Sequence record: MT611523.1
Length of the DNA: 64,000 nt
Origin: Escherichia phage DK-13
Direction: 5' to 3' (one strand)
The notes under the pieces are model-generated. The model was given only the letters and a program-made list of their open reading frames with translations, was not told the DNA's origin and searched no databases. The position numbers and the translations under genes are program-made. Below are positions 3,214 to 52,028 of the stretch, in pieces. Every line of letters begins with the position of its first letter. The stretch's first letter is position 1.

Positions 3214-4381
3214 GGTCTTCCATCATATCTAAATCGTTTTCGATATCTGCAGCGGACGGTTTTGTCTTACCTTCAGGAGCAGAGTATTTTTCAACCTTGG
3301 AGGCAATAAGCGCATCAACTTCGGCATCAACAACAGCATTGCTATCGATTGCACCCAGTTGGTAATGGCGTTTGATTGCATCACGGAAAGGTTCGTGTTT
3401 AAACAGCGGCCCCCAGAATTCGGTGCAGTTAGTATCTTTTGCGCGCCATGATTTTTCTTCGCGGACCATTTCCCCGGTCTCAACATCAAGATATTCACGG
3501 TTATACCAACCAACTTTTGGTTTAACCACAAATCCGATTTCTATTGCCATATCAAGCAGGCCAGAATACGGGTCAATACCACCATCGAATTTTACATCAA
3601 TGAAGAATTTACTTTTCTCTTTGACCATACGAGATTTTTCGGCGTTCAGAACAAATTGGAAGCCTTCAAGTTCTTTACCAGTTTCTTTAATCTGACGTTT
3701 ACCGATAATGAATACAGTGTCCGCGGAATACATAACACCTGTGCCACCGGTCATAACGGTTTTACTGTACATCTCAATCGTCTCGATTGTATGGTTAACC
3801 GCGACACAAGGAATATCCTTGATACTAAAATAAGGGGTAACAATACGGAACAGAGATTTCAGGGATTTAGCACGAGTCATATCGCCAACGACTTTTTCGT
3901 TCATCGCATCTTCTGTTTCTTTTTTCGACGCCATGTTACCGATTGAGTCAATAAAGATAATGACTTTTTCACCACGCTCAATTGCTTCAAGCTGGTTAAC
4001 CATATCAACTTTCAATTGTTCAACCGACTGGATTGGTGTATGGATAACACGCTCCGGGTCTACTTTCATTGCACGAAGATATGCTTCTGTGATACCAAAT
4101 TCTGAATCATAGAACAAACAGATTGCGTCGGGGTATTTGTTCATATATGCAGAGACCATCGTTAAACCCATATTGGATTTAAAGTGTTTTGACGGACCAG
4201 CAAAAATAGTCAAACCTGACTGCATACCACCATCTAGTGCACCGCTGATTGCAATGTTCAGCATCGGGATTTTTGTACGAACTACATCTTTATCATTAAA
4301 GAACTTGGACTTGGTAAGAGTCGCAGTCATTTTGGATGTAGAAGCTTTAATCAAACGGGATTTCAAATCTGCAATAGACAT
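3203..4381 (-). CDS. uvsX: UvsX RecA-like recombinase
   Basis: 392 aa, RecA/Rad51-fold sequence; T4 UvsX size and position. Confidence 0.93.
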   Translation of the reverse strand: MSIADLKSRLIKASTSKMTATLTKSKFFNDKDVVRTKIPMLNIAISGALDGGMQSGLTIFAGPSKHFKSNMGLTMVSAYMNKYPDAICLFYDSEFGITEAYLRAMKVDPERVIHTPIQSVEQLKVDMVNQLEAIERGEKVIIFIDSIGNMASKKETEDAMNEKVVGDMTRAKSLKSLFRIVTPYFSIKDIPCVAVNHTIETIEMYSKTVMTGGTGVMYSADTVFIIGKRQIKETGKELEGFQFVLNAEKSRMVKEKSKFFIDVKFDGGIDPYSGLLDMAIEIGFVVKPKVGWYNREYLDVETGEMVREEKSWRAKDTNCTEFWGPLFKHEPFRDAIKRHYQLGAIDSNAVVDAEVDALIASKVEKYSAPEGKTKPSAADIENDLDMMEDLDE

Positions 4382-44620: not shown

Positions 44621-45580
44621 TTATTTTTCGAAAGGGCGAATTAAATGCTGGTTAGCTTTGAAACGTTTAACATAGTCTTCGTGACCCAGGGTGTTATACA
44701 TATTAACCACTTCCTGGTAATGTTCCCAGGCATACTCACGGAACCATCCAGAAGTAATGGAGGTGCAGACTTTTTCCAGCGCAATATGGAAGCTCACGGA
44801 TGGAGAGATATTGAACTCATTGGGAACCTGCGAACGCTCCAGAGCAAGTACACATGCTTCTTCATAAACCCCTGCCAGTTTAATAATCTCAGGGAGTGCT
44901 TCAAATTTTTCACGCGAGGTCATAACTTCTGAATCATCTTTCATATAGAACTTATATGCAGGCTTATCAGCAAGCGCCACGGCCTCGTGGATGGAGTCAT
45001 GGTCAAGGGTATAGATTGTATCATTAAAGAAAGTTTTCTTGCCCACGTCTAGTTTAGGGTGACTATATGACAATGTTTCTGCCTGGCGCTGCAGCATGAT
45101 TTTATGCAGTTCGTCATTAAGAACAACACCCTTATTGCGAAGGTAATTAATATGACTCATAGTCTTCAGGAAGAATGGATTGTTCTTCAGGTAACGATGA
45201 GACAATTTAATTGCCAGACAAATATCAGGAGTCGCCCAATAGAAACCTGTAAGACGGTCTTTCTTAATATGATTTTCAGCGTATTTCAAGAGACGATAAC
45301 TTGAGGTAAAATCTTCCTCTTGCAACTCATCAGTCAGCTCACGAACGCTTGTCAGCGCGCGGACAATGTACGCTTCAAAATAGGTTTCTTTACCATTGTG
45401 CATACATTTAAAAGCTTGGACATCAGGGTTATCCACAGGAACATGAGCACCGAACATACGTGCTTTAAAGTGGTTCCAGGAGCCCTGGTCAGCGATAAAG
45501 TCCCAATCAGAGTTTTCAATTTTCTGACTTTCAATCAGACCAGAGTTATGTAATGCACGAGAACCAATAACTAACATCAT
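44621..45580 (-). CDS. Hypothetical protein
   Basis: 319 aa ORF preceded by a family-A promoter cassette. Confidence 0.5.
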   Translation of the reverse strand: MMLVIGSRALHNSGLIESQKIENSDWDFIADQGSWNHFKARMFGAHVPVDNPDVQAFKCMHNGKETYFEAYIVRALTSVRELTDELQEEDFTSSYRLLKYAENHIKKDRLTGFYWATPDICLAIKLSHRYLKNNPFFLKTMSHINYLRNKGVVLNDELHKIMLQRQAETLSYSHPKLDVGKKTFFNDTIYTLDHDSIHEAVALADKPAYKFYMKDDSEVMTSREKFEALPEIIKLAGVYEEACVLALERSQVPNEFNISPSVSFHIALEKVCTSITSGWFREYAWEHYQEVVNMYNTLGHEDYVKRFKANQHLIRPFEK

Positions 45581-45681: not shown

Positions 45682-45909
45682 TTATTTTCCTAACGAAATA
45701 CGAGTAGGTTTTTTGCCAAAATATTCTTCATAAGAACCATCTAAACGACCCGCTTTAGACCGACAGTATGAATCGTACTTTTTGTAATAAGTCATCTCAG
45801 TATTATAACGCGGGTGTCTATCAGCCATAATAATACTTAATGGCCAACCTTTGGCATAATCGCGAAGACCATTTATTTTACTAATGTATCTTTTCTTTAA
45901 TTTTAGCAT
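45682..45909 (-). CDS. Hypothetical basic protein
   Basis: 75 aa ORF. Confidence 0.45.
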   Translation of the reverse strand: MLKLKKRYISKINGLRDYAKGWPLSIIMADRHPRYNTEMTYYKKYDSYCRSKAGRLDGSYEEYFGKKPTRISLGK

Positions 45910-46127
45910 GAGCTCGGGTACCAGATTTTACCGTCGGCGCGGGCAACGAAGGTACGACCAGCTTCTTCGCCGTAACAAGAGCTATTCAGCCAATCTTCAA
46001 GACGAACTTCACCGTCATAATCATCTAGCTCAACACCAAAATCCTGAGCAGAAGCCATATCTTTTACTTTCTTATACAGGGCAGCCAGTTCAAGAGCAGC
46101 TTTTTCTAATTCGTTAATATCAGTCAT
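45903..46127 (-). CDS. Small protein, WVSSSxEC-tail family (divergent member)
   Basis: 74 aa, ends GKIWYPSSC; last of four tandem paralogs. Confidence 0.5.
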   Translation of the reverse strand: MTDINELEKAALELAALYKKVKDMASAQDFGVELDDYDGEVRLEDWLNSSCYGEEAGRTFVARADGKIWYPSSC

Positions 46128-46136
46128 TTTTATTCC

Positions 46137-46349
46137 TTAGCATTCGTAAGAGGAGGACACCCAAGAGGTACCACTAATTGTAATACAACCATTATAAAGC
46201 GTAATATGTCGTTCTAGGTCACGAACACCATCAATGTAGATATCAGCTTCTTCGCGTTCTTCTTTACAAATCTGGATAACGTTTTCAATAGCTGCCGCGG
46301 CAGTACGGATTGCACAATCTAATTCACGAGACATATAATTCCTTAACAT
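46137..46349 (-). CDS. Small protein, WVSSSxEC-tail family
   Basis: 70 aa, ends GTSWVSSSYEC. Confidence 0.5.
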   Translation of the reverse strand: MLRNYMSRELDCAIRTAAAAIENVIQICKEEREEADIYIDGVRDLERHITLYNGCITISGTSWVSSSYEC

Positions 46350-46624
46350 TCAGAAGAGGAGGACACCCAACCGCCATTTTCCAGGTCAGTTGTATAGTCA
46401 TGAGTGTTAACAATAGCCCATTCAGGATGGCCATATTCTTCCCAATGGGCAAGGTCAGCTTTCAAGGCACCAAGAGAATAATAGTCACCGCCCATACCGC
46501 GAGCAGGGTATATATTAAAATGAGTCTCATATTTGTTTGCAATTTCCTCGGCACGCCGAATAGCTTTATGGATGTCATTTACTGCGTTAGCCAGTTCTTT
46601 ATTTTTACGGTAATCATTCACCAT
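46343..46624 (-). CDS. Small protein, WVSSSxEC-tail family
   Basis: 93 aa, ends ENGGWVSSSSEC. Confidence 0.5.
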   Translation of the reverse strand: MVNDYRKNKELANAVNDIHKAIRRAEEIANKYETHFNIYPARGMGGDYYSLGALKADLAHWEEYGHPEWAIVNTHDYTTDLENGGWVSSSSEC

Positions 46625-46633
46625 AACGTTTCC

Positions 46634-46924
46634 TTAGCACATTGCCGAAGAGGAGACCCAAGCACCAACTGTAACGACACCGTTTTCAACTTCACCGCCG
46701 TTGTTTTCAATTTCATCTTTAAACCACTGGGAGCATTCATAACCGACAGGATAATATGTACGGCCTGAACCATAATCACCGGTACCGAATTGGATACCAT
46801 ATTCATCTGCGATTTCTTCGCAGTGTTTTTCAATTTCAGAGGTCTTATTTAGAAGAGAATAGATGGCTTTTTCTGCAGATTTCTCATCATAATACTTGGG
46901 GATAGCAATTTCAATTTTATTCAT
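46634..46924 (-). CDS. Small protein, WVSSSxEC-tail family
   Basis: 96 aa, ends VGAWVSSSAMC; shares YY..G and ENGG motifs with 46343-46624. Confidence 0.5.
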   Translation of the reverse strand: MNKIEIAIPKYYDEKSAEKAIYSLLNKTSEIEKHCEEIADEYGIQFGTGDYGSGRTYYPVGYECSQWFKDEIENNGGEVENGVVTVGAWVSSSAMC

Positions 46925-47274
46925 GATTTACATTCCTTAATAAAGGTTTCAAGGTCATTACGTTTTGTTTTGTCTAGGAACTTATTATACTCAGCCATTG
47001 CCGAAGCATATCTCTTACGGCTAGGAGCATTCACTGCATTTGTGTGACAGATATCATAAACAACCGGGATAAAATAAGCCACAACAGCCGGAGCAATTAT
47101 CATAAAGAAGCCCATCTCAATAGGCATGACTCCCTCGATTGCAGCCATAACCGTGGTCATTACCAGACCAACCAAACCACCGAGCATACCGGTGACAATT
47201 CCCAATAATAAATTGCCGCCAATATCATATTCAGCCAATTGATAAACATGTGATGCAAGACTAGGCCGTTCCAT
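46921..47274 (-). CDS. Membrane protein
   Basis: Start at MERPSLAS (AAGGAGG RBS); two TM helices; C-terminus ETFIKECKS. Confidence 0.5.
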   Translation of the reverse strand: MERPSLASHVYQLAEYDIGGNLLLGIVTGMLGGLVGLVMTTVMAAIEGVMPIEMGFFMIIAPAVVAYFIPVVYDICHTNAVNAPSRKRYASAMAEYNKFLDKTKRNDLETFIKECKS

Positions 47275-47620
47275 TACGAACCTCCTTAATAAATTCTTCG
47301 GCACATTTAATTTTGTGCTCTTCTTGTAGGGAAACACATTTTTGTTCCCACGCTTTAACTCGCCCACGATAACCTTTATTCATATGATTTTGATGCCACA
47401 CGTTTATCAATATCATGCTCAGGACTGTAATAAAAGGTGCTGCAATTATTAGTGACCAGGCGACTCCAACACTGATAATATCCATATCCCCACAAACCAC
47501 CATCATTATAACCCCAACAATGCACATGGACAAAGCTCCAAATGGAGGCATAAGGTCTTTATCAATCTTGTCTGCGTATACAAATTTTTCTGGTTTACTT
47601 GGCAGATATAACGTTCGCAT
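47261..47620 (-). CDS. Membrane protein
   Basis: Start at MRTLYLPSK; two TM helices; C-terminus EEFIKEVRNGTA. Confidence 0.45.
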   Translation of the reverse strand: MRTLYLPSKPEKFVYADKIDKDLMPPFGALSMCIVGVIMMVVCGDMDIISVGVAWSLIIAAPFITVLSMILINVWHQNHMNKGYRGRVKAWEQKCVSLQEEHKIKCAEEFIKEVRNGTA

Positions 47621-48167
47621 TTTGAACCCCTTTAGCATATTCACGACATTCAGCAATAAAACGATTAAGCTTACGTTTCCGTTTACGACCCTCTAATGTA
47701 TACTCAGCCGCCAAATCAAGAAGCTCATCTTTATCATAATTTTTAATATCAGTATAAGTTGGGCGGCGGTCAACCATTCCAAAGTGGTCACCATTTTCCA
47801 ACATCAAATAACACACCAAATGGTCATCATCGTCCGCATTAATAAGCTGCTTATAATCACTTGGTTCATTTAACGCATACACAGAATAACTCAGCCCAGC
47901 GAATTCCACTCGTTGAATACCCAGATTTACGTCAATAATTTCCAAGGCATCTGCAAAAGAAAGGTCTTCAGCTAAAGCAAAAATAAAAGGCAATTTGGTA
48001 GTATCGCCGCGACTTGTTGTTCTTCTTAAGAAATCATTGGAATAGCCCAAGTCGCGGCGGATTCTATAAAGAACTGTGTTAGTTTCAGTGGCAAGACCAC
48101 TACCGCCAAACCATTCCACATTTGATAAAAGATTATCATATAAAGTCATAATTTTCTCCTCTCCCAA
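47595..48167 (-). CDS. Hypothetical protein
   Basis: 190 aa; C-terminus contains NRFIAECREYAKG. Confidence 0.5.
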   Translation of the reverse strand: MGEEKIMTLYDNLLSNVEWFGGSGLATETNTVLYRIRRDLGYSNDFLRRTTSRGDTTKLPFIFALAEDLSFADALEIIDVNLGIQRVEFAGLSYSVYALNEPSDYKQLINADDDDHLVCYLMLENGDHFGMVDRRPTYTDIKNYDKDELLDLAAEYTLEGRKRKRKLNRFIAECREYAKGVQNANVISAK

Positions 48168-51875: not shown

Positions 51876-51952
51876 TGGTCGGGGTGGTGGGATTCTAACC
51901 CACAACCTACGGTTTAGAAGACCGTTGCTCTATACAATTGAGCTACACCCCG
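51876..51952 (-). tRNA. tRNA-Arg (anticodon TCT)
   Basis: Hand-folded cloverleaf: acceptor CGGGGTG/CACCCCG, D stem GCTC/GAGC, anticodon stem ACGGT/ACCGT with loop CTTCTAA, T stem GTGGG/CCCAC, encoded CCA. Confidence 0.85.
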
Positions 51953-52028
51953 GGTGGCCCCATCCGGACTTGAACCGGAAACCTGCCAGTTATGAGCCGG
52001 ATGCTCTAACCAATTGAGCTACAGGGCC
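51953..52028 (-). tRNA. tRNA-Ile2-like (anticodon CAT; AUA-decoding after lysidine modification, or Met)
   Basis: Hand-folded cloverleaf: acceptor GGCCCTG/TGGGGCC, anticodon loop CTCATAA, T arm TCCGG-TTCAAGT-CCGGA; overall resembles E. coli tRNA-Ile2; abuts tRNA-Arg. Confidence 0.8.

Follow-up and report, generated by a model that had tools for sequence, protein, structure and literature searches.

The locus studied here raises the question of why four adjacent small genes of a phage should all end in the same short, Cys-terminated tail, and what this tail is for. The window, by which the whole analysed stretch is meant, is 64,000 nt of Escherichia phage DK-13 (sequence record MT611523.1), a JS98/SP18-like T4-type phage (Gaprivervirus). 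A preliminary description of the window had reported four tandem small open reading frames (ORFs) with related tails; all four were located, on the minus strand, and are called A–D below. They are also annotated as coding sequences in the nearly identical Escherichia phage vB_EcoM_RZ, with which the array stretch shares 99.7% identity. Sequence comparison across phages suggests that the tail genes are not a local oddity: together with a nucleotidyltransferase (NTase) gene downstream they look like a conserved and previously undescribed two-part phage module. The elements of the module in the window are the following.

46634–46924, minus strand: paralogue A, 96 amino acids, with a long predicted N-terminal helix, the loop GDYGSGRTYYP and the tail GAWVSSSAMC.
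46343–46624, minus strand: paralogue B, 93 amino acids, with the loop ARGMGGDYYS and the tail GGWVSSSSEC.
46137–46349, minus strand: paralogue C, 70 amino acids as the longest ORF, a minimal form without the YGxGG loop, with the tail TSWVSSSYEC.
45903–46127, minus strand: paralogue D, 74 amino acids, with a spacer-less motif twice, internally as WLNSSC and terminally as WYPSSC (end GKIWYPSSC), and YGEEAGRTF between the two.
45975–45992, minus strand: the internal motif of D, W46-L-N-S-S-C51, followed by a YGxxGRTF-type loop (YGEEAGRTF).
46132–46164, no strand assigned: 33-nt direct repeat (tail codons, TAA and GGAA) at the end of C, with further copies at 46338–46370 (B) and 46629–46661 (A).
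44621–45580, minus strand: the candidate partner gene, a Pol-beta-type NTase of 319 amino acids (Pfam DUF7277 and DUF7275; phrog_2141).

The start of C is likely the ATG at 46334, giving the 65-amino-acid form found in most relatives. Among the 570 stop-to-stop ORFs of at least 45 amino acids in the window, only A–D end in W..S[STN](..)C, four observed against about 0.0075 expected by chance from the amino-acid composition. With the tail defined as W-x-[SAP]-S-[ST]-x-x-C no more than one residue from the end, or as W-x-x-S-S-C, the tails of A, B and C are canonical and that of D is spacer-less and doubled. The internal motif of D is also kept in the D-type protein of Aeromonas phage 25 (DWLSSSCYGE). 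A (YGSGRTYY) and B (GMGGDYY) carry the Y-G-x-G-G-T-Y-Y loop, whereas D has a degenerate form of it and C none. Two more shared motifs had been proposed, of which YY..G does occur in A (YYPVG) and B (YYSLG), but ENGG is approximate, reading ENNGG in A and ENGG in B.

The 30-nt sequences that encode the tail, 52 distinct ones, were compared codon by codon across diverse phages. For the two invariant Ser residues AGY codons were used in 13 and 11 of these and TCN codons in the remainder, a switch that requires at least two substitutions. The Cys codon was TGC in 39 tails and TGT in 13, and TAA, TGA and TAG were all used as stop codons. The ratios of non-synonymous to synonymous substitution (dN/dS) against orthologues of related phages were 0–0.24 for A, 0.13–0.42 for B, 0–0.16 for C and 0–0.09 for D. 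Because the Ser, Cys and stop codons vary across the tails and dN/dS is low, the tail is, as judged from these comparisons, a protein feature under purifying selection. Conservation at the DNA level only, named beforehand as the outcome that would speak against a protein motif, was not what the codon switching and the overall dN/dS range of 0–0.42 indicated.

The near-identity of the 3' ends in DNA had also been overstated. The C and B copies of the 33-nt repeat agree at 91%, the A copy has an identity of only 70%, and D has no copy; the TAA-GGAA string is common to A, B and C. In the B and C copies five of the six synonymous-capable codons are identical, and the high nucleotide identity of this pair may reflect local gene conversion but does not account for the existence of the motif. 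Junction RNAs did not fold better than shuffled sequences (z −0.5 to +1.8), no inverted repeats were found at the array, and the shared 3' end had no match in Rfam. Nor was there a conserved boundary stem-loop of the kind that, together with a promoter, characterizes PeSL, the T4-like promoter/terminator stem-loop shuffling module (PMC4122927).

When the tail motif was sought in the proteins of other phages, it was found widely. Exhaustive searching with a profile gave at least 150 clusters at the 50% identity level; among the clusters listed nearly all proteins were 65–145 amino acids long, and the end of the profile coincided with the end of the protein. Tail statistics were taken from 163 retrieved sequences shorter than 150 amino acids, chosen for the ending W..S[STN]-x-x-C. 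Their consensus is G-W-[VILM...]-[S/A/P]-S-S-x-x-C, in which the first tail Ser is fixed by the selection and the second position is Ser in 155, Thr in seven and Asn in one of the sequences. The Cys is the final residue in 152 of them and is followed by one residue in the other 11, and the D-types lack the x-x spacer. Also Y-G-x-G occurs in 135 of the 163, with the consensus (A)YGMGGTYYP; this hairpin, YGxGGTYY(P) in general form, and the Cys-terminated end are taken to define the family, which is phage-specific. Between loop and tail lies a hypervariable acidic linker, which in some members (e.g. P0127, P0094 and P0118) repeats a W-[DN]-S-S-G-C-like motif; every D-type likewise holds the tail motif more than once. 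The median isoelectric point of the family is 4.5 and the median net charge −8. In 91 of the 163 members the tail Cys is the sole Cys and so can belong to neither an intramolecular disulfide nor a Zn site. A rare natural variant was seen in Acinetobacter phage AB1I1T (sampled locus L121, 1871–2056), where a family-like gene ending in ...TWSSSWSSSNE, with a doubled W-S-S-S and no Cys, adjoins a canonical paralogue ending in ...TWYNSSESC and an NTase gene.

In family hidden Markov model searches A, B and D matched phrog_899 (E-values 3.7e-23, 4.4e-19 and 6.4e-10, respectively), and C matched phrog_4882 over residues 6–70 (E-value 3.2e-36). The entries matched by A–D and by the NTase (phrog_899, phrog_4882, phrog_2141 and DUF7277/DUF7275) give, however, no function, motif description or linkage. 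Searches of A–D against Pfam, NCBIfam and PADLOC gave nothing meaningful, a sequence search of the PDB with the paralogue profile gave coiled-coil noise only, and a structure search of BFVD returned only uncharacterised family members. The AlphaFold2 model of A (predicted local distance difference test score, pLDDT, 90.9) has a 29-residue N-terminal helix, and in the predicted family fold a single long helix packs against a small beta-sheet. A–D are all acidic, and the predictions make them soluble, folded proteins.

Lipidation and targeting had been suggested as functions of the tail, and neither finds support: there is no signal peptide or lipobox, the Cys is the last residue and not at the CaaX position (−4), and the N-termini are hydrophilic helices of acidic proteins predicted to be soluble. 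The third suggestion, an interaction motif, remains the best reading. From its pattern of conservation the tail seems to behave as a chemical or recognition site, not as mere packing.

The array had been described as locally amplified. Compared with one another, A and B have 33% identity over 73 amino acids, and the remaining pairs of the window align solely at the tail. Identities to the corresponding types of other phages are much higher: A has 63% with the A-type of Mosigvirus, 55% with that of Karamvirus, 45% with that of Aeromonas phage 25 and 39% with that of the rV5-like ESCO13; B has 55% and C 59% with their Mosigvirus counterparts; and D has 43, 41 and 38% with the D-types of Karamvirus, Aeromonas phage 25 and ESCO13, respectively. 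Since each paralogue type thus has a closer orthologue in other phage genera than among its neighbours in the window, the comparisons identify the array as a set of ancient paralogues and not as a recent local amplification, while the view of A–D as a paralogous family with a conserved terminal-Cys tail was borne out.

The number of paralogues differs among phages, from one to five or six. A fifth, E-type gene (...GFWF[NS]SSMSC, about 70–75 amino acids) lies between C and D in SP18, MN01, JS98 and dhaeg, at 3518–3745, 2010–2219 and 2010–2222 in the sampled loci L002, L031 and L032, respectively. It is cleanly missing from the window (C–D junction 46128–46136) and from vB_EcoM_RZ, a copy-number difference due to deletion or insertion. 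In JS98 the E-type gene is unannotated and falls in an annotation gap (L031, 2000–2228).

The preliminary description, sound on the paralogous family and the protein-level tail and mistaken on recency, overlooked the linkage of the array to the downstream NTase gene, which starts 322 nt downstream of D on the same strand. This linkage was approached from both sides. In viral contigs found by a degenerate DNA pattern for YGMGGTYY, including jumbo (355–390 kb) and 26–60 kb contigs, every locus that had sufficient flanking sequence showed an NTase homologue directly downstream, in the same orientation. The converse sample was anchored on the 319-amino-acid NTase and consisted of 85 loci, of which 75 had one to five tail ORFs upstream on the same strand; three more were rescued by eye, which raised the number to 78. 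The position was likewise consistent, 202 of the 205 tail-ending ORFs of the NTase loci being upstream and on the same strand. When the flanking ORFs were clustered all against all, no other family emerged that accompanies the pair across phage groups. The module moves as a unit, and its surroundings differ: its neighbour is nrdD in Aeromonas phage 25, in the window it is flanked by e.2 and e.3, and the rV5-like ESCO13, Myxococcus phage Mx1, an Acinetobacter phage and jumbo phages provide yet other contexts. No natural fusions of the small domain with the NTase were found, and no tail gene was present nearby in about six of 84 NTase loci or with the actinophage homologues. NTase homologues occur in 731 sequenced phage genome records and fall into over 2,000 protein clusters (90% identity); a species-level collection of bacterial and archaeal genomes (185,579 species according to its description) gave five matches, all in contigs of metagenome-assembled genomes (MAGs).

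The NTase has the hallmarks of the Pol-beta superfamily, hG[GS] ... [DE]x[DE] ... followed by a third carboxylate, and the NTase alpha/beta fold. All 82 partner-bearing NTases have G6 and S7, and nearly all have D25-x-D27 and E69 (D25E in two and E69D in six). The enzyme thus looks active and, to judge from these residues and its predicted fold, of the MenT/AbiEii/ANT structural class, its best structural matches being the toxins MenT1, MenT3 and MenT4. Two GenBank records already name it a (putative) nucleotidyltransferase. The 50 members tested matched only DUF7275/DUF7277 and not Pfam DUF1814 at E-values up to 10; for the NTase there was no match by sequence among the solved structures of the PDB, and none that was meaningful in PADLOC. 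The C-terminal half has further invariant residues (K125, H128, H174, D193-H194-D195, H198, C272 and R281), and an extra helical region of about 120 amino acids at the C-terminus contains the invariant H/D cluster and the motif KVCTSITSGWFR.

NTases of lineages without tail genes keep the catalytic residues but alter the otherwise invariant KVC272TSITSGW279FR281, with C272I and R281A in two actinophages and W279R in six of nine, which hints that this surface may face the partner. The actinophage NTases, of Gordonia phage ClubL (L118, 2809–3600) and Mycobacterium prophiT49-2 (L122, 2812–3612), are short (263–266 amino acids) and have no Cys-tail gene upstream; C272, R281 and W279 are replaced in them and G-S...D-x-D is kept. 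In ClubL a cluster of tRNA genes lies some 1.2 kb downstream of the NTase gene.

Of the roles that the small proteins might have, we tentatively favour that of NTase partners, most likely acceptor substrates engaged through the tail, a reading that is itself still short of probable. The invariant tail would be the element that the NTase engages, and the enzyme would move a nucleoside monophosphate (NMP) or a nucleotide-derived group onto a tail Ser hydroxyl or, alternatively, onto the loop Tyr, with the near-terminal Cys and the Trp as determinants of recognition or chemistry. Several divergent substrate paralogues would then share one enzyme, in the manner of precursor or carrier genes with one modifying enzyme, and the modified acidic proteins might act on host targets early in infection. 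This reading is favoured because hydroxyls are the groups to which NTases transfer NMP and are offered by the invariant Ser-Ser (or the loop Tyr), because the motif is reiterated in linkers and D-types as a linear recognition site would be, and because many paralogues per enzyme is the pattern of substrates or carriers and not of antitoxins.

It is favoured also because Pol-beta-fold enzymes that modify small partners have precedents. In the GlnD–PII, MntA–HepT and CitX/MdcG–acyl-carrier protein (ACP) systems an enzyme of this fold is genetically coupled to a small partner, as here, and modifies it at the hydroxyl of a Tyr or Ser. Citrate lyase and malonate decarboxylase have carrier proteins that, like A–D, are small and acidic; these contain an invariant Ser. 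Unlike these, A–D have no sequence or fold similarity to PII, HEPN or ACP proteins, and their modification is a proposal only. The HEPN motif Rx4-6H is absent from A–D, which gave no HEPN match in Pfam, NCBIfam or PADLOC.

Several points weigh against the acceptor role. The choice of acceptor residue is a guess. The members with a residue after the Cys, together with the spacer-less D-types, make a strict need for a free Cys alpha-carboxylate unlikely, and the partner-less NTase loci suggest that the enzyme has an activity independent of the partner. The co-variation in the C-terminal half of the enzyme is weak, the sample being small and phylogenetically non-independent. Furthermore, MenT1, MenT3 and MenT4 act on tRNA 3' ends and not on proteins, and the MenA1 encoded upstream of MenT1 is an inhibitor (PMC10435456).

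The last point leads to the main rival, possible although on the unlikely side, in which the NTase is a toxic modifier of tRNA or RNA 3' ends, used against the host or in competition, and the small proteins are its inhibitors or timers, binding through the long helix while the tail plugs or covers the active site. Of the known systems, MenAT1 of Mycobacterium tuberculosis (MenA1–MenT1, PDB 8an4) comes closest: the gene directly upstream of menT1 encodes MenA1, a long-helix protein of 68 amino acids that binds MenT1 and thereby blocks it (PMC10435456). Gene order and enzyme fold class are the same here, the MenT toxins named above match the NTase best in structure, the model of A likewise has a long N-terminal helix, and the acidity of the proteins could allow nucleic-acid mimicry of the substrate. 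Antitoxins, however, are usually single-copy and fast-evolving, whereas here two to six ancient paralogues accompany each enzyme, and conservation is strongest in the Gly-rich loop and the Ser-Ser...Cys tail, not in the helix. The small proteins have no sequence or fold match to MenA1 or AbiEi; they are alpha+beta proteins with an invariant Gly loop and Cys tail, which MenA1 lacks. The NTase in turn differs from MenT1 in having no DUF1814 match, in its additional C-terminal region with the H/D cluster and KVCTSITSGWFR, and in being accompanied by one to six small paralogues. The module is found in lytic phages and, with its five MAG matches, is absent from bacterial chromosomes. The partner-less NTases with intact catalytic residues argue against an obligate toxin–antitoxin relation, since an obligate toxin would be intolerable there unless another inhibitor were present.

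It is rather unlikely that the small proteins are instead interchangeable specificity subunits which recruit the NTase to various host or defence targets, the paralogue array giving breadth and the variable acidic linker serving as the target-binding surface. Such adaptors would fit the occurrence of several divergent paralogues with one enzyme, the hypervariable linker flanked by a conserved helix end, loop and tail, and the copy number that differs between close relatives. There is no evidence for any target, however, the linker is short and of low complexity in many members, and the minimal C-type is almost linker-less yet strongly conserved (dN/dS as given above).

A role in binding a ligand or metal is less likely again. 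The proteins would then act as sponges that take up a nucleotide produced or edited by the NTase, or they would form homo- or hetero-oligomers in which every subunit contributes its terminal Cys to metal binding. Known phage sponges are likewise small proteins, the Gly-rich YGMGG loop and the Ser-Ser-Ser/Cys cluster resemble an anion- or metal-binding site, and each chain has one invariant Cys. The fold of A–D nevertheless matches no known sponge or metalloprotein, and the repeats of the motif in disordered acidic linkers suit a linear recognition motif better than a folded pocket.

An extension of the acceptor role, speculative and in our estimate improbable, is that the module is an unrecognised phage protein-modification system in which the NTase nucleotidylylates the tail Ser. 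The nucleotide could stay as an adduct, the protein–nucleotide conjugate serving as a decoy, primer or carrier, or it could leave, the near-terminal Cys then forming a thioether in a lanthionine-like Ser-x-x-Cys ring. The arrangement resembles the precursor arrays of ribosomally synthesized and post-translationally modified peptides (RiPPs) in having tandem short genes with a conserved recognition part upstream of one enzyme, and Ser-x-x-Cys-COOH is the ring-forming pattern of aminovinyl-cysteine (AviCys) peptides. Unlike RiPP and AviCys peptides, A–D are predicted to be folded proteins of 65–96 amino acids (pLDDT 91), and in contrast to AviCys the D-types have no spacer and some members have a residue after the Cys. 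The annotated or Pfam-scanned neighbours included no LanB/M/KC/L, LanD/HFCD or radical-SAM (S-adenosylmethionine) genes. If true, this extension would mean a new route of Ser activation on folded proteins in lytic phages of Gram-negative bacteria.

The tail proteins could also be host-takeover or anti-defence proteins independent of the NTase, next to it by inherited synteny, as A–D sit in a hyperplastic early region rich in small accessory genes. This is very doubtful, because the linkage is kept where the NTases are about 40% identical, in phage groups that are unrelated and in differing neighbourhoods, and no other neighbour is conserved. The weakest alternative, that the shared end is a DNA-level cassette for recombination, ribosome binding or translational coupling and not a protein motif, finds some support in the direct repeat spanning stop and GGAA and the hint of gene conversion in B and C, but it is hardly credible and was ruled out as the main explanation by the codon analysis of the 52 tails, with the internal motif of the D-types and the negative results for junction folds, inverted repeats and Rfam also counting against it.

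Among the neighbours of the module in the window, one more gene lies between D and the NTase gene.

45682–45909, minus strand: a basic ORF of 75 amino acids (phrog_7065), outside the conserved module.

Its start overlaps the stop of D by 7 nt. Among close relatives its dN/dS is 0.02–0.09, and it is present only in these, not with the module in other phage groups. Upstream of the array, two overlapping tandem genes for predicted membrane proteins were found on the minus strand (46921–47367 and 47261–47656; 148 and 131 amino acids as the longest ORFs), annotated as e.3/e.4-like. They match phrog_2330 and phrog_2604, the second also weakly phrog_2330, and by these matches look like distant tandem paralogues. 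Genes for tRNA-Arg(tct) and tRNA-Met(cat) are located at 51876–52028 on the same strand (minus), about 5 kb upstream of the array, and their nearness could be relevant should the NTase, like the MenT enzymes, have tRNA 3' ends as its substrate. In some GenBank records the orthologues of B, C, D and neighbouring genes are misnamed 'tail completion protein', 'major capsid protein', 'group I intron endonuclease', 'malate synthase' or 'transposase', spurious automatic names that could mislead annotation transfer.

A search of the accessible literature found no description of phrog_899, DUF7275/7277, the motif, the RB69/44RR ORFs or phage-encoded MenT/AbiEii-like NTases, and the parts of the module are annotated as hypothetical, sometimes being misnamed as capsid or tail proteins. 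The NTase is nevertheless carried by T4-like, rV5-like and jumbo phages and by phages of Acinetobacter, Pseudomonas, Vibrio and Myxococcus, with tail genes upstream in almost all the sampled loci. The near-invariant Ser-Ser...Cys end coupled to an active-looking NTase gives a sharply testable hypothesis on a widespread early-gene function, for which the invariant motif offers precise mutational handles; candidate roles are host takeover, manipulation of tRNA or other RNA, and counter-defence. The module would extend the MenT/AbiEii class of enzymes, known as bacterial toxins, to a phage-encoded role.

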